From contig JAWUXY010000031.1 of the NCBI GenBank assembly GCA_034111105.1, forward strand, positions 1 through 27,342: 27,342 nt of DNA, given 5' to 3'. Under the pieces are notes generated by a model that made no database searches, had not been told where the DNA came from, and worked only from the letters and a program-made list of their open reading frames with translations. Source of the DNA: Bermanella sp. (GTDB taxonomy: Bacteria; Pseudomonadota; Gammaproteobacteria; Pseudomonadales; Oceanobacteraceae). Below, one piece after another: positions 7,044 through 15,077 of the stretch. A program made the translations under genes and the position numbers. The first letter of the stretch is position 1, and each line of letters opens with the position of its first letter.

Positions 7044-7379
7044 ATGTTAGCGCAAGAAAGTTGTGAAGCGTGTCGTGCGGATGCGCCAAACGTGACGGAT
7101 ATTGAATTAACCGATTTTATGCCGGCCATACCTGAATGGCTTAATATAAATGAAGAAAGCGTTGCGAAGTTGCGCCGTAGCTTTGCTTTTAAAAGCTACA
7201 AGCAAGCGCTTAGTTTTACCAATGATCTGGCTTATTTAGCCGAGCAAGAAGATCATCATCCCGATATTTTATTACAATGGGGGAAAGTAACCGTTACATG
7301 GTGGACGCATAAAATTAATGGGTTACACAAAAACGATTTTATCATGGCTGCCAGAACAGACGCATTATACAAACATTAA
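7044..7379 (+). CDS. phhB: Pterin-4-alpha-carbinolamine dehydratase
   Basis: 111 aa. [42 protein letters not shown] is the PCD/DCoH family signature. Confidence 0.93.
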
Positions 7380-7714
7380 CGGCTGAGTCTTAATGTATCG
7401 ACTTTAAGTACTCGACCTTCACAGTCGCTTGTGATTACGGTGAGTGACAGACCACTTTTAAGTGCTTCAAGCGCCATTAAAAAGCGTCTTTGCGCGACCG
7501 TGTCATACTCACTGTATACGCGATAAACATTAGATGGCTTACCGCCACAGTTGTGTATCTTATTAGCCGAATGAATATCAAACGGCGCTTCTTCATCATC
7601 GACTCTTTGTTCTAAGCCGCTCACTGACAAGCCTTCTACTGCACGTTCATTTCCCCGAGCATTGGTCATAAAAGCGCAGACGCAGAGAATAATCATTAGT
7701 CGATGTAAAAACAT
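7376..7714 (-). CDS. Small secreted hypothetical protein
   Basis: 112-aa ORF with signal peptide [21 protein letters not shown] and two Cys in the mature part. Divergent from the five-gene operon; 4-nt convergent overlap with phhB. Confidence 0.5.
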
Positions 7715-7852
7715 TGTTGTCCTAATTTCAAGTCATCTTATCCTTATCTAAGTATCGACGTAAAAGCTGAAAACTAAAGGATTTTAACAACTAAACATAG
7801 CGTGTACTCATGCTTGAGCTATGCTTTGTAATTGAGTGTATGGCGAAAATGG

Positions 7853-8965
7853 ATGATGCCAAGGATGAAGCAGGACAACGGACTTTACTCGAATAAATAT
7901 GTAATTTTATCGGCGCTATTCTTTATATTATGCGCCATATTTTCGTCGTATGCCTTTTCTGAAACCCGAGTAGTGACATCAGATGTTCCCGGTTTTGGAT
8001 TGCCCCCTACCATGTATGCTGGCTTTTCTCGTCTATTAGATGACGAAAGTATCCTTGTACCCGAAGAGTTATTAGATGTTGATAAAAACATCAAACGTAT
8101 CGCATTTTATTTTAATGGCGATCGCCTGCATCGAAAAATCCCAAAACAAGTTCACTTAATGATTGAGAATAAATTGCTTGGCAAGTTCATGGGGTTAGGC
8201 CGATTTGAAGTGATCGATTGCATTGAGTGTCGTACTACCCGCGTTAATTTCGAAGACTCTCGTATGCTGATTAGCCAGAGTGCGCAAAGTAATCAGGACT
8301 TGCGTGATTTATCTAAAGATGTGCGAGCGGATGCTTTTTTGTTATGGAGCGCCAGTGTGCATGAAGACAAATTCACTATTAATTTACGATTAGTCAGCGC
8401 AAAAAGTAATGAATTAGTGTGGTTAAAAGAATATGCGAAAAAAACCACACGAGAACAAGAAGAGCTTGAATTTGAAAGTATTGAAATGGAAATGGTCGTC
8501 AGCTCATGGGGATTGGCCGCAGAGCGTGATGGCGTTGGAGCTGTCGAAGATGCCACGCTCAGTGGCGTGACCGCTTTTGGAATTCGACGCCGAGAATACA
8601 CCACTTTAAATAAGGATGTAGAATACAGTTTGGGCGTTGAATATTTTAGGAACTTCTCAAGCAGTGATGAATTTGATGTCAGTGGTTTTAATTTAGAAGG
8701 GCGAATATTTGTTAATATTTCTGCGTTAAAAGATTGGGTTAATACCAAAGCCTACGTAGGAATCGGCCAAGCCTTTTTCAGCGGCAGTCACGGTTTGATG
8801 ATGAAATTCGGTTTAGAGTTTCCATTTGTGACTAATGGCTTTATGGCGATTGGAGCCGTGTACTTGGTTAAAGAAGATGTTGAATGGGATAGTAATGCCG
8901 ATTATGAAGACAGCTCTGAATTTGGTGGTGCTGGTTTGGACTTAACCCTCGGCTATCGGTTCTAA
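7853..8965 (+). CDS. Signal-peptide protein with an outer-membrane beta-barrel-like C-terminal half (operon gene 1)
   Basis: The track starts at TTG 7832; in-frame ATGs occur at 7853, 7856 and 7865, so the start is uncertain. Leader VILSALFFILCAIFSSYAFS|ETR. The C-terminal ~150 aa show alternating hydrophobic/polar strands and end in ...LDLTLGYRF, the terminal aromatic typical of OMPs. The N-terminal half contains DAFLLWSASVHEDKFTINLRLVSAKSNELVW, reminiscent of TolB-N/LpoB/CsgG/FlgO-type folds (weak). Confidence 0.7.
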   Translation: MMPRMKQDNGLYSNKYVILSALFFILCAIFSSYAFSETRVVTSDVPGFGLPPTMYAGFSRLLDDESILVPEELLDVDKNIKRIAFYFNGDRLHRKIPKQVHLMIENKLLGKFMGLGRFEVIDCIECRTTRVNFEDSRMLISQSAQSNQDLRDLSKDVRADAFLLWSASVHEDKFTINLRLVSAKSNELVWLKEYAKKTTREQEELEFESIEMEMVVSSWGLAAERDGVGAVEDATLSGVTAFGIRRREYTTLNKDVEYSLGVEYFRNFSSSDEFDVSGFNLEGRIFVNISALKDWVNTKAYVGIGQAFFSGSHGLMMKFGLEFPFVTNGFMAIGAVYLVKEDVEWDSNADYEDSSEFGGAGLDLTLGYRF

Positions 8966-8975
8966 GGAATAAAAT

Positions 8976-9605
8976 ATGAAAACCATTTTATTACTCCTGT
9001 TTATAATGGTCGCTTGTTTAAGTGGCTGCTCGATTGAACAGCTGGCCATGGAAAAGGATCCATTTATGGAACAAAAACCAGCAGAAGATATCGATCCTTT
9101 AAATTCAGAGAGTGCGGAATACGCAAAAAACAATCATGGCGTTGTGAATATACACCGCCATGGCCCAGGTTATGACGTCATGATGATGCTGAACGCAGGC
9201 GAAAGCGATATTATCTTCAGCATGGATTTACCTGTAGGTGGCGCAACCTATATGCCAGAAATTTCAGAGCAAATGAAAGCACATCGAAAAAAAGGGAAGG
9301 GTTCTAATAACGCTGAAGAAGAGAATGATTTTTTTAATGAAAAAGCCTTATCACTTTTCTCTGATGCGACAAAACATATGCTCAGTGCACAGGCTTTGTT
9401 TTATCGTAAATCGTATTGGAAAGCACTCGAGCAAACGAACAAAGCAATGTCTCTAGTGCCGGCGTCTGCACAGGCTTATGCTTTGAAAGGCAGTATTTAT
9501 TACAAAATGGGCCGTAAAAAAGAAGCCAAAGTATCATGGCAGCAAGCATTGCAATTAGACCCTTCTTTAACGGAAGTTAAAGAGAGTTTAAAGCTCGTTA
9601 AGTAG
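8976..9605 (+). CDS. TPR-repeat lipoprotein (operon gene 2)
   Basis: AAGGA Shine-Dalgarno 10 nt after the gene 1 stop. Lipobox MVACLSGC. The C-terminus AQALFYRKSYWKALEQTNKAMSLVPASAQAYALKGSIYYKMGRKKEAKVSWQQALQLDP reads as about two TPR units. Confidence 0.75.
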   Translation: MKTILLLLFIMVACLSGCSIEQLAMEKDPFMEQKPAEDIDPLNSESAEYAKNNHGVVNIHRHGPGYDVMMMLNAGESDIIFSMDLPVGGATYMPEISEQMKAHRKKGKGSNNAEEENDFFNEKALSLFSDATKHMLSAQALFYRKSYWKALEQTNKAMSLVPASAQAYALKGSIYYKMGRKKEAKVSWQQALQLDPSLTEVKESLKLVK

Positions 9606-9614
9606 GGAATATCT

Positions 9615-11555
9615 ATGCTGAAAAAATATGGATTATTATGGGTAGTGTTAGCCAGTTTATCGTTAATAGCGCAGGCCGCGACGAACACGCCTGTTGAAGT
9701 ACAAACAAAAACCGATGACTTAGAAGAGCTACAGCTTAAATCACAACTAGAAGATAGTCTGGCTCGTGATATTCAGTCTTATCTTGGCCATAATCGATTT
9801 ATTGTCAACGTGAAAGTAAACCTTGAAAAAATTCGCCAAGTTATTAAAACAAAATCAAAACAATCAACACCATTATCTAAAACATACCAACCTACTTTTT
9901 TGCCAAAGCTCACGTTTCCTAATGCAGTTGAAGATGATACTTATGAGGTAGAAAGCTTACCCGGGTTGCCCTTTGTTGATATTCCGGGCGATAAAGAAAA
10001 AGACGCTGAACTGAAGTTTATGCGAGAACAGGTTGAACGTTTACAGCAAGAACAGCGTCAACCACGTTGGCAGGATAGAGAAAACGAAGATGCAAGCGGT
10101 AATGGTGGCTCAGAAGAAACCGTAGGGGTATTTAATCGTATTGCTAAACTAATGGTTACATTAGCGGTTGAAGAAAATGTGAGTGCAGAGCAAGAAGCTT
10201 TTTTAAGAAATTTAGTTTACCAAAAAGCGTCGCTTAATGACTTACGGGGTGATGAGCTTAAAATTATTAGAACACAGTTTTCCAGTATCCCTATAACGGA
10301 AAAAGAAAAGGAACAAATTGCGTCGCCGTTTTCTGATGAGTCAGCGCCGGCACAAAATTGGATGGATGAAAATTTCAATGCGCTATTGTTAGGGTTGTTA
10401 AGTTTATTAGCATTACTGCTAATTAGTTTGATTGTGTTATCAATGCGTAAAAAATCACAACCAAGCGAAGCACAAAATATGTCATCCAGTGACATATCAC
10501 ATACACCTAATGTGTTAGCCACTCCTGAAGCGGAAGGCCCAGACAGTAAGCTCATCATGCAAAAAACTCGGCAAGATATTATATCGCTCGGTTTAGGTCA
10601 GCCTCAGCATGTTCAAGGCACAATGGACCAATTATTGAGCCAAGAAGAAAAAATACCCATGGCGGCGTCTATTTATAAAGTATTGGGTCGCAGCTTGTTT
10701 CGCTCTATTTTTCCTAATATTGAGCAATTTCAGTTGCAAAGTATCATGGCTCACTTAGCCGATCAGCCGCCGGATGACGATCAGCAATTTCAAGACACTC
10801 AAGATTTTTATCAATTATTGCAAAAATCCGTGCAAGAAACAGCAGAAGTAAAATCGCACCCTTTTGAATTTTTAGGCAAATTAAATGACAGCCAAGTTTT
10901 GTATTTGATGCAACATGAAGATGCTCGCATTCAAGCTTTGGTGATTAGTCAACTGCAAGCGCAGCAAGCCGCGCGAGTACTCAATCGCATTAATGAAAAA
11001 CGCCAAGCCCAAGTCATTGCAGAGTTAGGCCAGTTTGAAACATTCCCGTTGGATACCTTTAAAGATGTCGCCGATCGTTTAGCTAAATCTGCATTAAACG
11101 TCCCTAGCTTTGAAAACGTTAATGCTGATGGTTTGCATATGTTAATGAACATGTTGGATAACATGAATTCAACCGAAGAGAACAAAGTATTAAAACGCTT
11201 AAAGCAAGATAAGCCGGATACGTTTTATAAGCTGCGCCAACAATATTTTACCTTTGCAGATGTTGTTAAAACCCCAAGACAAATTCTTAGTAACGCACTG
11301 CGTGAAGTGGAGCGCAGTTTCATTGGCCGTGCGATTTGTGGTACTCCTGATGATTTTAAAATTCATGTGTTGTCATCATTGACGCCCAAGTTGAAAGCCT
11401 TAGCAAAAGAGGACTTAAAGCGTTATGAAGGGCGCATTGGTGCCAAAGATGTGGAATCTGCTCGTAAAGCGATTGTGCATAAGTTGCGTGAGTATATTCA
11501 TACGGGCAAATTCTCTATGGACGAACTGCAAGTCAAAAAGCAGGCTGAGTCATGA
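9615..11555 (+). CDS. FliF-like/FliG-like fusion membrane protein (operon gene 3)
   Basis: 646 aa. N-terminal signal or anchor LLWVVLASLSLIAQA. Periplasmic segments LEDSLARDIQSYLGHNRFIVNVKVNL and IAKLMVTLAVEENVSAEQEAFLRNLVYQKASLNDLRGDELKIIRTQF resemble FliF/YscJ ring-building motifs (compare FliF IKRLSVAVVV...RGDTLNVV..F). TM helix LLLGLLSLLALLLISLIVLSM. The cytoplasmic ~355 aa resemble FliG N/M/C, e.g. VLYLMQHEDARIQALVISQLQAQQAARVLNRINEKRQAQVIAEL and YFTFADVVKTPRQILSNALREVERSFIGRAICGTPDDFKIHVLSSLTPKLKALAKEDLKRYEGRIGAKDVESARKAIVHKLRE. Coding is near certain; the domain assignment is by eye. Confidence 0.75.
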   Translation: MLKKYGLLWVVLASLSLIAQAATNTPVEVQTKTDDLEELQLKSQLEDSLARDIQSYLGHNRFIVNVKVNLEKIRQVIKTKSKQSTPLSKTYQPTFLPKLTFPNAVEDDTYEVESLPGLPFVDIPGDKEKDAELKFMREQVERLQQEQRQPRWQDRENEDASGNGGSEETVGVFNRIAKLMVTLAVEENVSAEQEAFLRNLVYQKASLNDLRGDELKIIRTQFSSIPITEKEKEQIASPFSDESAPAQNWMDENFNALLLGLLSLLALLLISLIVLSMRKKSQPSEAQNMSSSDISHTPNVLATPEAEGPDSKLIMQKTRQDIISLGLGQPQHVQGTMDQLLSQEEKIPMAASIYKVLGRSLFRSIFPNIEQFQLQSIMAHLADQPPDDDQQFQDTQDFYQLLQKSVQETAEVKSHPFEFLGKLNDSQVLYLMQHEDARIQALVISQLQAQQAARVLNRINEKRQAQVIAELGQFETFPLDTFKDVADRLAKSALNVPSFENVNADGLHMLMNMLDNMNSTEENKVLKRLKQDKPDTFYKLRQQYFTFADVVKTPRQILSNALREVERSFIGRAICGTPDDFKIHVLSSLTPKLKALAKEDLKRYEGRIGAKDVESARKAIVHKLREYIHTGKFSMDELQVKKQAES

Positions 11556-12349
11556 TTAGTTTTAGTACGCTCATTGGTATCACAGCAGGTATTGGCTTAT
11601 TTGTTTTGGCCATTGCCAGTAGTACAGATAACTACATGATGTTTTTAAATCTTGCCAGCGCCATGATGGTGATCGGCAGTACGTTTGCAGCATCGCTCAT
11701 TAGCTTTAGTTTTTTAGAAGTGATGCACGCTGTGAAAGCCATGTTTCAAACGCTTGCGGCTGGGCATACGACACAAGTGCATTTACGCGACCTAGTAAAG
11801 CGCTTTGTGGAATTTAGCCGCATTTATCGTGATGGTGGTATTTCTGCCTTAGAAGATAGTTTAAGCAATAAAGAAAAAAATGATGATTTCTTGTCGTTAG
11901 GGCTAGAGCTAATGGGCTCGGGTTACAAGCAAAGTGATATCCGTGTGATTATGGGGGATGCCATGGACAGCCATTGGCAGCGCCAAAGTCTAGAAGGTAA
12001 AATCCTTAATACCATGGGCATTTATGCACCCGGCTTTGGCATGGTGGGCACCATTGTTGGTTTGATTATCATGCTGGATAACATGGGCGATGATATGGCC
12101 AATCTAGGCAAAGGGTTAGCGTTGGCGTTAATTACGACGCTTTATGGAGTGTTACTCGCTAATCTTTTGTTTAAACCCACTGCGGCGCAAGTGACAGAGA
12201 AACAAGAGCAAGAGTATTTCCGTAATCAATTAATAACCGATGGTTTTGTATTACTGGCTGAAAAAAAGGACGCACTTGTAATGCAAGATCGCCTTAATGC
12301 GTATGTGAAACCCAACAAACGCTTCACCATAGTCGAAACCAATGAGTGA
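11552..12349 (+). CDS. MotA/PomA-type stator channel subunit (MotA/TolQ/ExbB family; operon gene 4)
   Basis: ATGA start/stop overlap with gene 3. Four hydrophobic helices with a ~100-aa loop between TM2 and TM3. YAPGFGMVGTIVGLIIML...GLALALITTLYGVLLANLLFKP is the MotA/PomA core with both conserved prolines. The loop YRDGGISALED parallels PomA ARREGLLSLED. Confidence 0.9.
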   Translation: MISFSTLIGITAGIGLFVLAIASSTDNYMMFLNLASAMMVIGSTFAASLISFSFLEVMHAVKAMFQTLAAGHTTQVHLRDLVKRFVEFSRIYRDGGISALEDSLSNKEKNDDFLSLGLELMGSGYKQSDIRVIMGDAMDSHWQRQSLEGKILNTMGIYAPGFGMVGTIVGLIIMLDNMGDDMANLGKGLALALITTLYGVLLANLLFKPTAAQVTEKQEQEYFRNQLITDGFVLLAEKKDALVMQDRLNAYVKPNKRFTIVETNE

Positions 12350-13022
12350 CAAGACTTACAAGCGAGGCTTAAGGCGTCGCCGTGCTACGTTTGATGCTGA
12401 CGGTGAAGGTTGGTTAGTAACCTATGCCGATGCCATTACATTGCTACTGGCGTTTTTTGTGATGATTCTTTCGGTATCGGATCTCAATCAAGGCAAGATC
12501 GAAGCCTTAAAAGAAGGCTTAGCGAGCATTATCTCAGGCAAGCAAGCTCAAACCCCGTTTAACGATATTAAAGACGCGCTGGATGACATTGTTAAGCAGC
12601 ACGGCATGCAAGACTATGTGGCGGTTGATATCGATATGAAGGGGGTTCGGGTTGAATTCTCTAATTTCTCTTTATATCAGTCAGGCAGTGCCGCAATTAA
12701 ACCCGAAGCCTTGCCCATGCTGGCTGAGGTCACAAGAGTTATTAAAGACACCAGTTCATCGACGCACCTCATCGAAATAGAAGGACACACAGACGATGTG
12801 CCCATACATACCGAGCGCTTCCCTTCGAACTGGGAACTCAGCGCTTCGCGCGCCAGTAATGTGGTCAAATACCTTTTGGGCAAGGGCGTTGATAAAGAGC
12901 GATTGAAGGCGTCAGGTTACGCCGACTCTCGCCCTAAGGCTGTACTTGAGCCGGGGCAGGCTTTTACTGAAGACGACAGGGCGGCCAACAGGCGAGTCGT
13001 TATTTATGTAAAGCGTTACTAA
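12342..13022 (+). CDS. MotB/OmpA-type stator anchor subunit (operon gene 5)
   Basis: 8-nt overlap with gene 4. GWLVTYADAITLLLAFFVMIL is the MotB TM with the conserved Asp. The C-terminal OmpA-like peptidoglycan-binding domain includes IEGHTDDVP, NWELSASRASNVVKYL and NRRVVIYV. Confidence 0.9.
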   Translation: MSDKTYKRGLRRRRATFDADGEGWLVTYADAITLLLAFFVMILSVSDLNQGKIEALKEGLASIISGKQAQTPFNDIKDALDDIVKQHGMQDYVAVDIDMKGVRVEFSNFSLYQSGSAAIKPEALPMLAEVTRVIKDTSSSTHLIEIEGHTDDVPIHTERFPSNWELSASRASNVVKYLLGKGVDKERLKASGYADSRPKAVLEPGQAFTEDDRAANRRVVIYVKRY

Positions 13023-13050: not shown

Positions 13051-13084
13051 AGGCCCTATGTGAAAGCATAGGGCTGTTTTTTTG
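13051..13084 (+). terminator. Rho-independent terminator of the five-gene operon
   Basis: gccctatg (13053-13060), loop tgaaag, catagggc (13067-13074), then a T7 run (13077-13083). Confidence 0.75.
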
Positions 13085-13310
13085 ATGGGTAGTTTTTGCT
13101 TGGTCTGCCATAGGAATTCTTTTGTATTTTGCTCCATTATTTGAGCGATCAACAGATTACTTAATGACCGATTTATTGCTTTTAGTTGTGCAGTTATAAG
13201 TAAAAAGTACTCGGTTACTAGGTGATGGGTTTATAGCAGGTGCCTAAAGTGGCGAATGATGACTATCTCGCCTGAAAAATAGACTATTCTGAATATTATG
13301 AAAAAGATGA

Positions 13311-15077
<1,767 letters not shown>

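Follow-up and report, generated by a model that had tools for sequence, protein, structure and literature searches.

A natural FliF–FliG fusion protein encoded with its own MotAB-type stator in Bermanella

A contig of 27,342 nucleotides (nt) from Bermanella sp. (JAWUXY010000031.1, assembly GCA_034111105.1; the whole stretch analysed, hereafter the window) contains an open reading frame (ORF) at 9615–11555 on the forward strand, with an ATG start and 646 codons. Our analysis supports the view that, in its product of 646 amino acids (aa), a shortened FliF is naturally fused in frame to a complete FliG. In flagella, FliF and FliG are separate proteins linked by the binding of a C-terminal FliF peptide to the N-terminal domain of FliG, and engineered FliF–FliG fusions are functional. 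The sequence-only reading of this DNA had proposed that a single polypeptide joins a FliF-like part through one transmembrane (TM) helix to a complete FliG-like part, and sequence profiles, the predicted structure and comparative genomics concur. The fusion gene is the third of a tight five-gene operon that encodes, in order, an outer-membrane protein, a tetratricopeptide-repeat (TPR) lipoprotein, the fusion, MotA and MotB.

The strongest evidence for a fusion of two genes is an unfused pair in Marinimicrobia. A search of 1.84 billion cluster representatives (50%-identity clusters) retrieved 155 at E ≤ 1e-30. The fusion architecture is widespread, since most of these are 550–730 aa long and align from the second half of the ring-building motif (RBM) to the C-terminus. 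P0180 is a stand-alone match of 310 aa with Pfam FliG_N, FliG_M and FliG_C on its record, and one member of its cluster (n = 29) is named as Candidatus Marinimicrobia bacterium. Unfused loci are L050 (1147–3227), which encodes P0180, and L052 (3167–10933) and L053, which carry the near-identical cluster member P0402. Their gene order is three TPR/YfiO-like genes, motA, motB, short FliF and FliG, with the FliG start overlapping the stop of the upstream short-FliF gene. The short FliF (382–386 aa) has PF08345, LPGFP, RGD and a TM helix, and its C-terminal tail ends ...TRQAIITLSVGNPETATNILNNWMSSE... at the stop codon. Our hhalign comparison aligns it end to end with the N-terminal half of the window protein (probability 97.8%, E = 1.3e-12), while P0180, from residue 13, aligns with aa 350–638 of the window protein (29% identity, E = 2e-42) and also with E. 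coli FliG residues 4–321 (E = 2e-21). Because both unfused proteins align end to end with its halves, the window protein unites a complete short FliF with a complete FliG. The fused and the split arrangement both occur in nature.

These alignments place the fusion junction at about aa 341/342. Immediately before it, aa 311–342 (nt 10545–10640) form a FliF-type cytoplasmic C-terminal tail, ...TRQDIISLGLGQPQHVQGTMDQLL, which aligns with the C-terminal end of the unfused short FliF and by this alignment corresponds to the FliG-binding peptide of FliF. For comparison, the split-form tail reads ...VGNPETATNILNNWMSSE... up to its stop codon and the E. coli FliF tail ends ...SDNDPRVVALVIRQWINNDHE; the fusion and E. 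coli tails have P-x-x-V/A-x-x-I/M-x-x-W/L in common. On the FliG side, P0180 starts MAEEMKLSGLEKAAILFKVLG, the window protein continues SQEEKIPMAASIYKVLG and E. coli FliG starts MSNLTGTDKSVILLMTIG. The FliF-tail tryptophan, found within RQW in E. coli and within NNW in the split form, gives way to leucine or another residue in the fused proteins (MDQL in the window protein, aa 335–338, nt 10617–10628), and its loss may reflect a binding peptide relaxed once the partners were covalently joined.

The close family was aligned from 36 members, to which all fractions out of 36 given below refer. The profile of this family identifies FliG 3hjl (3.2e-21), FliG 1lkv (4.6e-20) and Salmonella FliF 6scn (5.1e-5) in the PDB. 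Profile and structure comparisons had been named as checks of the sequence-only reading, and both bear it out, with resemblances far above what chance would give: Pfam, PDB-profile and hhalign searches return matches to the FliF and FliG families alike, and Foldseek matches the AlphaFold2 (AF2) monomer, with a mean predicted local distance difference test score (pLDDT) of 73, to FliF RBM3/collar and to full-length FliG. The 186 homologues found come mostly from Bermanella, Oceaniserpentilla, Thalassolituus and Oleispira, and are labelled 'FliG', 'FliG C-terminal domain-containing' or 'hypothetical' in their sources. Strong purifying selection acts on the fusion gene; its proportion of nonsynonymous differences (pN) is 0.10 for the gene as a whole, 0.14 for its periplasmic part and 0.03 for its FliG part, and the synonymous counterpart (pS) is saturated at ~0.7.

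The periplasmic half is preceded by an N-terminal hydrophobic leader (aa 1–21, nt 9615–9677), probably a Sec signal peptide cleaved at AQA↓A. Its length and sequence differ across the 36 homologues, and the –1/–3 residues are small. Given the AQA↓A end and the variability between relatives, the leader looks like a cleaved signal peptide, unlike the first TM helix of FliF. The FliF RBM3-like domain spans aa 27–222 (nt 9693–10280), as identified by AF2, Foldseek, Pfam PF08345 and hhalign, and is divided in the model into α1-β1 (aa 35–79), an insertion (aa 80–165) and β2-α2-β3 (aa 166–220). The predicted order begins with a strand (27–31), a helix (35–57) and long strands (62–79), continues in the insertion with a helix (127–148) between low-confidence stretches (81–124 and 149–165), and is completed by long strands (166–186), a helix (191–204) and a strand (214–220). 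Next in the model are the TM helix (247–278) and a linker without order, and residues 311–645 are entirely helical.

Both periplasmic strings quoted in the sequence-only reading were placed by script within this domain, the first (LEDSLARDIQSYLGHNRFIVNVKVNL) at aa 45–70 (nt 9747–9824) and the second (IAKLMVTL...IIRTQF) at aa 176–222 (nt 10140–10280, previously given as 10140–10285). The acidic/Gln-rich linker described between them is present as well, aa 120–170 being abundant in E, Q, D and R. The likeness of the two strings to FliF stands, whereas their interpretation as two motifs does not: because the AF2 order is alpha-beta, insertion, beta-alpha-beta, the model makes them halves of one split RBM3-like domain. 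The same split-RBM arrangement occurs in FliF RBM3/β-collar and in SpoIIIAG.

Several comparisons assign this domain to FliF. Pfam YscJ_FliF_C (PF08345) matches the window protein at aa 55–222 (E = 0.0059, profile positions 3–147 of 147) and 28/36 family members, at best with 8.2e-10. The profile of the N-terminal half has FliF as its only PDB match below 0.3 (E = 4.7e-4), aligning IKKLTITLVV...EQ..F.RNL...LNDLRGD.L.IV...FS, the next Trp and the TM helix to FliF 356–535, and hhalign aligns aa 175–292 to E. coli FliF 373–486 (E = 1.3e-5). In Foldseek, the FliF RBM3/collar/S-ring structures 6sd1, 6scn, 8z4g and 7d84 are matched with E of 2e-3 to 8e-3, a probability of 1.00 and target-normalised template-modelling scores of 0.45–0.50; matches to SpoIIIAG (5wc3, E = 0.65) and PrgK are weaker. 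By comparison, RBM1/RBM2 (SctJ-like, Pfam YscJ_FliF) gave no Pfam match in any of the 36 members. One split RBM3-like domain accounts for the whole periplasmic part, which measures ~230 aa (~240 aa by the earlier estimate), and RBM1 and RBM2 are absent.

The insertion carries the motif LPGLP (aa 115–119, nt 9957–9971), a hallmark of the family that lies in an AF2-disordered segment. LPGLP is present in 36/36 close homologues and is largely kept among 26 distant ones (L25/P25/G24), and its counterpart in the unfused Marinimicrobia protein is LPGFP; the motif is a candidate partner-binding site. The single TM helix (aa 255–278, nt 10377–10448; earlier placed at 10375–10445) corresponds to the second TM helix (TM2) of FliF by hydropathy, AF2 and alignment. 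It lies in a hydrophobic segment (aa 252–280, Kyte-Doolittle peak 3.08) that is the only strong hydrophobic stretch besides the leader.

Beyond the TM helix the protein continues for 368 residues (~355 aa in the earlier estimate), in which the quoted FliG-N-like (EEKIPMAASIYKVLGRSLFRSIF), FliG-M-like (HEDARIQ...AELG) and FliG-C-like (YFTFADVVKTPRQILSNALREVE) strings were placed by script at aa 344–366, 434–472 and 544–566, respectively. The FliG N-domain-like helices (SQEEKIPMAASIYKVLGRSLFRSIF..., aa 343–410, nt 10641–10844) were delimited by alignment via the stand-alone FliG P0180. Their direct FliG_N profile signal is weak (3.8 bits); by way of the P0180 alignment and the Foldseek columns, the fusion carries a FliG_N domain. 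Foldseek aligns the model over 315–321 columns of full-length FliG (3hjl, 8umx_B and 9n49_G, E ~1e-9). The middle domain occupies aa 418–496 (nt 10866–11102; Pfam FliG_M 1.5e-12 at aa 426–496) and the C-terminal domain aa 528–634 (nt 11196–11516; Pfam FliG_C 1.8e-17). The latter superposes on 1qc7 with a root-mean-square deviation of 1.7–1.8 Å and target-normalised template-modelling scores of 0.77–0.87. In addition, hhalign aligns aa 428–633 to E. coli FliG 118–321 (4.5e-5), and the NCBIfam FliG equivalog TIGR00207 matches aa 407–632 over model positions 103–325 with 79.4 bits, against a cut-off of 226.7. FliG_C and FliG_M are each matched in 36/36 members, at up to 4e-19 and 1.3e-15, so that the outcome named beforehand as contrary to a fusion, a cytoplasmic part of MgtE-N type only with no FliG_C-like domain, is not what was found. 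A weak Pfam MgtE_N match exists (E = 0.0075 in the window protein, 4.5e-6 at best in the family), and an MgtE-N-only assignment is ruled out by the much stronger FliG_C and FliG_M matches.

The residues by which FliG meets the stator are partly retained. Y544-F-T-F (aa 544–547) is the equivalent of E. coli FliG M245-F-x-F, and the torque-helix equivalent was located at aa 589–604 (nt 11379–11426) by hhalign column mapping to E. coli FliG. There, K592 corresponds to R281 and is basic in 36/36, E599 to D288 (E/D in 19/36) and D600 to D289 (D/E in 36/36); three of the five classical FliG charges (K264, R281, D288, D289 and R297) are thereby kept. The K264 site, a stator-interacting charge in E. 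coli FliG, is occupied by Cys575 (nt 11337–11339), which is invariant in the 36 close homologues and variable in distant ones. The FliM-binding EHPQR motif is not retained in the fusion, where E435-D-A-R438 ... E470 replaces E-H-P-Q ... R160; within the close family, R438 and E470 do not vary.

The stator subunits are encoded directly downstream. Gene 4 (11552–12349, forward) specifies a 265-aa stator A subunit of MotA/PomA type, its start overlapping the stop of the fusion gene (ATGA), and gene 5 (12342–13022, forward), overlapping motA by 8 nt, specifies a 226-aa MotB. The best PDB relatives of MotA are flagellar stators (C. sporogenes MotA 8ucs, 2.6e-36; PomA 8bri, 1.8e-29). It matches the NCBIfam MotP/MotA/PomA models with 7e-48 to 2e-39; since the equivalog cut-offs are unreached (162.9 bits versus 394), it represents a distinct subfamily. 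R93 and E101 of MotA align to PomA R88 and E96, and the TM3/TM4 prolines are present as P160 and P209. MotB has the channel aspartate D30 (in TYADAIT), a MotB_plug match of 2.2e-14 and an OmpA-like domain (1.1e-16), and its NCBIfam matches are MotD/MotS/MotB. Residues T167, T195 and T196 of MotA (nt 12050–12052 and 12134–12139) align to PomA T158, T185 and T186; these three threonines are reportedly conserved in every Na+-driven stator, and H+ stators have Ala at two of the positions (PMC10374538). The stator is thus probably Na+-driven, as fits a marine host. Two other assignments were considered and rejected. TolQ/ExbB-type scores are marginal (0.005–0.0065), and for Zorya or another defence system, PADLOC gave only a generic ZorB match (1.5e-18) and a marginal ZorA match (6.8e-4) with no ZorC/D. 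MotA, at 265 aa, lacks the long ZorA tail, and the other three operon proteins have no PADLOC match.

Two partner proteins are encoded at the start of the operon. Gene 1 (7832–8965, forward), named only 'hypothetical protein' in its sources, encodes a 377-aa outer-membrane protein composed of a signal peptide, an LpoB/TolB-N-like domain and a C-terminal eight-strand OmpA/OmpX-like barrel whose last residue is Phe (AF2 model pLDDT 80). Foldseek matches the barrel to NspA, OmpA, Ail and OmpX (E 2e-6 to 1e-4) and the periplasmic domain to the LpoB C-domain (6.7e-5) and TolB (1.1e-4). Apart from a weak FlgO match (E = 0.0017), the protein has no Pfam family. Its LpoB-like domain contains a CxxC (C130 and C133, 'CIEC', nt 8219–8230) that is invariant in 31 homologues and could be a disulfide or metal site. 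Gene 2 (8976–9605, forward), conserved beside the fusion gene, encodes a 209-aa TPR lipoprotein (Pfam TPR_1 3.2e-10, TPR_2 1.1e-8) with the N-terminus MKTILLLLFIMVACLSGCSIEQ, the lipobox LSG↓C, the acceptor Cys18 and Ser at +2. Downstream, a hairpin resembling an intrinsic terminator at 13052–13085 (forward; 10-bp stem with 5 GC pairs, then the T-run GTTTTTTTGA) lies 30 nt 3' of motB, where the operon probably ends. Upstream of the operon, 42 loci show neither a sigma-28 nor a sigma-54 consensus, and a generic sigma-70 scan gave sites not above shuffled sequence; both are weak negatives.

The operon is conserved as a unit. All five genes occur in the same order in every complete Oceanospirillales-type locus among 41 species (tblastn), and two distant gammaproteobacterial metagenome-assembled genomes (MAGs; one unclassified, one of Ectothiorhodospiraceae) have the order motA-motB-OMP-TPR-fusion, where OMP is the outer-membrane protein. 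More distant fused members also adjoin motAB and TPR genes. As far out as Marinimicrobia, the shared set shrinks to MotAB, FliF, FliG and TPR proteins; the 329-aa product of the gene that opens the Marinimicrobia cluster was considered as a relative of the outer-membrane protein and rejected (hhalign probability 0.1%). In the most distant gammaproteobacterial loci, L042 (1056–2636) and L044 (968–2539), a ~525-aa protein with Sel1 repeats and a SPOR domain stands first in the cluster. SPOR domains bind septal peptidoglycan, and this protein is a possible hint at function. Pfam was uninformative for the further neighbours in distant loci, and the profile of the distant members, used as a query, found five proteins only. 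In L047 (9001–12709) the family member has 771 aa, and a KAP-family NTPase gene follows it.

The surroundings of the operon are those of housekeeping genes, with maf, sodB, fumarase and phhB upstream and pyrG, eno, ftsB, ispDF, truD, surE, pcm, nlpD and rpoS downstream in the window. Outside the operon, the 27-kb window contains no export, rod, switch or other flagellar gene, and no export, rod, hook, FliM or FliN gene was found within ±6–10 kb at any related locus.

The most likely reading of the module, at a probability of roughly 0.6, is a switchless, rod-less, ion-driven ring rotor. We start from homology, domain order, conserved residues, operon linkage and conservation, and from these infer the ring, torque and output steps. 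The RBM3-like domains would assemble into a ring in the periplasm, directly over the inner membrane (a canonical FliF ring has ~33/34 subunits), and each subunit would contribute its TM helix and its FliG module to a circle beneath this ring. Stator units of MotA5B2 type, anchored to peptidoglycan via MotB, would pass ions, probably Na+, by MotB D30 and MotA T167/T195/T196, and push the FliG torque helix (K592, E599 and D600) via MotA R93/E101, so that the ring would turn. Because there is neither a FliM/FliN site nor a switch protein, the rotor would be unidirectional and CheY-independent; because there is no RBM1/2, export gate or rod, its output would have to be drawn off on the periplasmic side of the ring. 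There, the LPGLP insertion may touch the TPR lipoprotein and the outer-membrane protein, and candidate cellular tasks include envelope maintenance and movement of a surface component, among others. By analogy, ring formation is plausible, since the isolated RBM3 of Salmonella FliF forms rings in vitro (PMC8786727).

A number of observations weigh against this rotor reading. The ring and its rotation are inferred, and no output component is among the parts found. The AF2 monomer has a predicted template modelling score of 0.31, with 120 residues, those of the insertion among them, at pLDDT <50, and the PF08345 match of the window protein scores 17.5 bits against a Pfam cut-off of 23.8. At the rotor–stator interface, two FliG charges are lost (K264 to Cys575 and R297 to Gly609), the acidic residues of the torque helix are poorly conserved among distant members, and Ser occupies the MotA position equivalent to PomA D114. 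The distant member L047 has no adjacent motAB. Furthermore, the host genera are described as polar-flagellated, making an interplay with a true flagellum conceivable.

The best-surviving alternative, which we nevertheless regard as unlikely, is a non-rotating transducer of Tol-Pal/Ton type, in which the FliG module only docks or activates MotAB and ion-driven conformational work, with no ring required, is handed on by the membrane protein to the TPR lipoprotein and the outer-membrane protein. Its partner set is indeed Tol-Pal-like, comprising a 5:2-type motor, an OmpA-like peptidoglycan-binding domain, a TPR protein (cf. CpoB) and a TolB-N/LpoB-like domain, to which L042 and L044 add the Sel1 and SPOR protein, and the loci encode neither an axial nor an export structure on which a rotor could act. 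However, the periplasmic domain is a homologue of the ring-building RBM3 and no extended TolA/TonB-like arm, the stator is of the flagellar PomA/MotP type, scoring only marginally as TolQ/ExbB, and the residues of the rotor–stator interface are retained on both partners.

Less probable still is an accessory or alternative part of the ordinary polar flagellum, whether a second rotor/stator, a stator reservoir, a brake or a scaffold like FlgO/FlgP/PflAB. Every part is of flagellar type, the database label of the protein is FliG, the outer-membrane protein has its weak FlgO match, the host genera are flagellated and TPR scaffolds (PflA/PflB) are known in other flagellar motors. This is countered by the position of the operon between fumarase and phhB on one side and pyrG and eno on the other, in 27 kb free of other flagellar genes, by the 42 loci that show neither flagellar-type sigma consensus upstream, and by the missing FliM-binding motif. 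In addition, the fusion cannot house an export gate because RBM1/2 are absent, a stator of its own is encoded, and the module is kept self-contained across phyla, Marinimicrobia and SAR324 included.

A decaying, functionless relic of a lost secondary flagellar system would fit the presence of only 4 of ~40 flagellar gene families and the truncated FliF part, and is very improbable in view of ORFs that are intact and overlap at their start and stop codons, pN of 0.03–0.14 against saturated pS, occurrence in 41 species and 155 cluster representatives, and co-conservation of two non-flagellar partner genes. That the cytoplasmic part is instead an MgtE-N-type or other generic helical repeat, to which the weak MgtE_N matches point, deserves next to no credence given the universal FliG_C and FliG_M matches, the close superposition on 1qc7, the MFxF and torque-helix equivalents and a stand-alone homologue that aligns to nearly all of E. 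coli FliG.

Comparison with known systems further defines the module. The flagellar rotor–stator core shares with it the RBM3-like domain, TM2, the FliG-binding tail, FliG N, M and C with an MFxF-type YFTF, torque charges (K592/E599/D600) facing a MotA R/E pair, and a MotB with its Asp, plug and peptidoglycan-binding domain; the threonines of the operon MotA are of the Na+ type, as in PomA. In contrast to that core, the fusion is a single polypeptide without RBM1/RBM2, with probably one TM helix instead of two, and an insertion with LPGLP and a helix replaces the tip of the FliF β-collar. Moreover, EHPQR is lost, the neighbourhood carries no genes for FliM/FliN, export, rod, hook or filament, the partners are an OmpA-like barrel/LpoB-like protein and a TPR lipoprotein, and the scores fall far below the canonical FliG and MotA equivalog cut-offs (79 versus 227 bits and 163 versus 394 bits).

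Engineered fusions share the covalent FliF–FliG order with the window protein. Salmonella fliF-fliG fusion mutants, likewise engineered, reportedly form rings. An engineered Vibrio FliF–FliG fusion forms rings as well (PDB 8z4d/8z4g, PMC10941966), and the FliF–FliG architecture is therefore physically workable. These constructs differ in having a full-length FliF (945 aa in 8z4d) and a complete flagellum, whereas the window protein is natural, has 646 aa and lacks both RBM1/2 and a flagellar context. The sole natural fusion that turned up in the literature searched, where otherwise only engineered ones were found, is that of Chlamydiaceae (Bergeron 2016, PMC4768692): a protein of ~330 aa with an RBM2-like and one further RBM, without a SpoIIIAG-like RBM3, with a cytosolic region that is FliG-M-like only, and with an injectisome as proposed partner. 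Both natural proteins join a shortened FliF to FliG-like sequence at a locus without the full flagellar set; as the chlamydial fusion is described, the window protein differs from it in having RBM3 only, a complete FliG, its own MotAB and 646 aa.

More distant parallels are found outside flagella. SpoIIIAG, like the fusion, has a single RBM with a β insertion and builds a large ring, but it has neither a FliG module nor a stator and matches far less well than FliF RBM3. Tol-Pal, ExbBD-TonB and Zorya resemble the operon in encoding an ion-driven unit of A5B2 type with periplasmic and outer-membrane partners, and the TPR protein and the TolB-N-like fold are reminiscent of CpoB and TolB of Tol-Pal; by comparison, the stator here is of flagellar type, and neither FliG nor an RBM ring features in any of those systems. 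What appears new is a flagellar-type rotor–stator reduced to its core and re-partnered, with parts from known superfamilies. No description of such a module was found in the literature searched, which excluded most subscription journals, and a prior account is possible; a recent survey of MotAB evolution makes no mention of it (PMC12505986).

More tentatively, we propose that free-standing, switchless and export-less motors that combine only a short FliF with FliG and MotAB, in fused or split form, and outer-membrane/TPR partners may occur widely among marine Gammaproteobacteria, SAR324 and Marinimicrobia, where they would serve an envelope task independent of the flagellum. Such a motor would have arisen by exaptation of the flagellar rotor–stator or, less likely, would descend from a lineage that predates the acquisition of type III export by the rotor. 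If the ring forms and turns, the module would be the smallest natural flagellar-type rotor–stator, with one rotor polypeptide and two stator proteins, and would make torque generation and 1:1 FliF:FliG coupling tractable to study in isolation from the ~40 other flagellar gene families. The persistence of FliF, FliG and MotAB as a module in its own right, lacking type III export, rod and switch, bears on how rotation and secretion merged in flagellar evolution, the coexisting fused and split forms provide a built-in evolutionary comparison, and the outer-membrane and TPR partners point to an envelope function. As a practical consequence, the public label 'flagellar motor switch protein FliG' may falsely imply motility and inflate flagellar counts in MAGs.

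A few further observations concern the loci and the rest of the window. One locus, L016 (JBLHVV010000051.1), labelled as a Crocinitomicaceae (Bacteroidota) MAG, has five genes 61–78% identical to those of the window, and given this identity the label suggests binning contamination. Between phhB and the operon lies a 112-aa ORF without a Pfam family (7376–7714, reverse), at whose place a 115-aa gene is called in L002 and L003. The listed start of the pyrG ORF (13323–15077, forward) is ~42 codons 5' of where CTP synthase models begin (aa 43–45), and the true start is probably near nt 13449. Finally, an ORF for a RebB 'killing trait' (R-body) protein (24527–24964, forward; Pfam PF11747, E = 1.3e-24) lies 3' of rpoS (22683–23690) and a DUF3127 gene (23976–24362).

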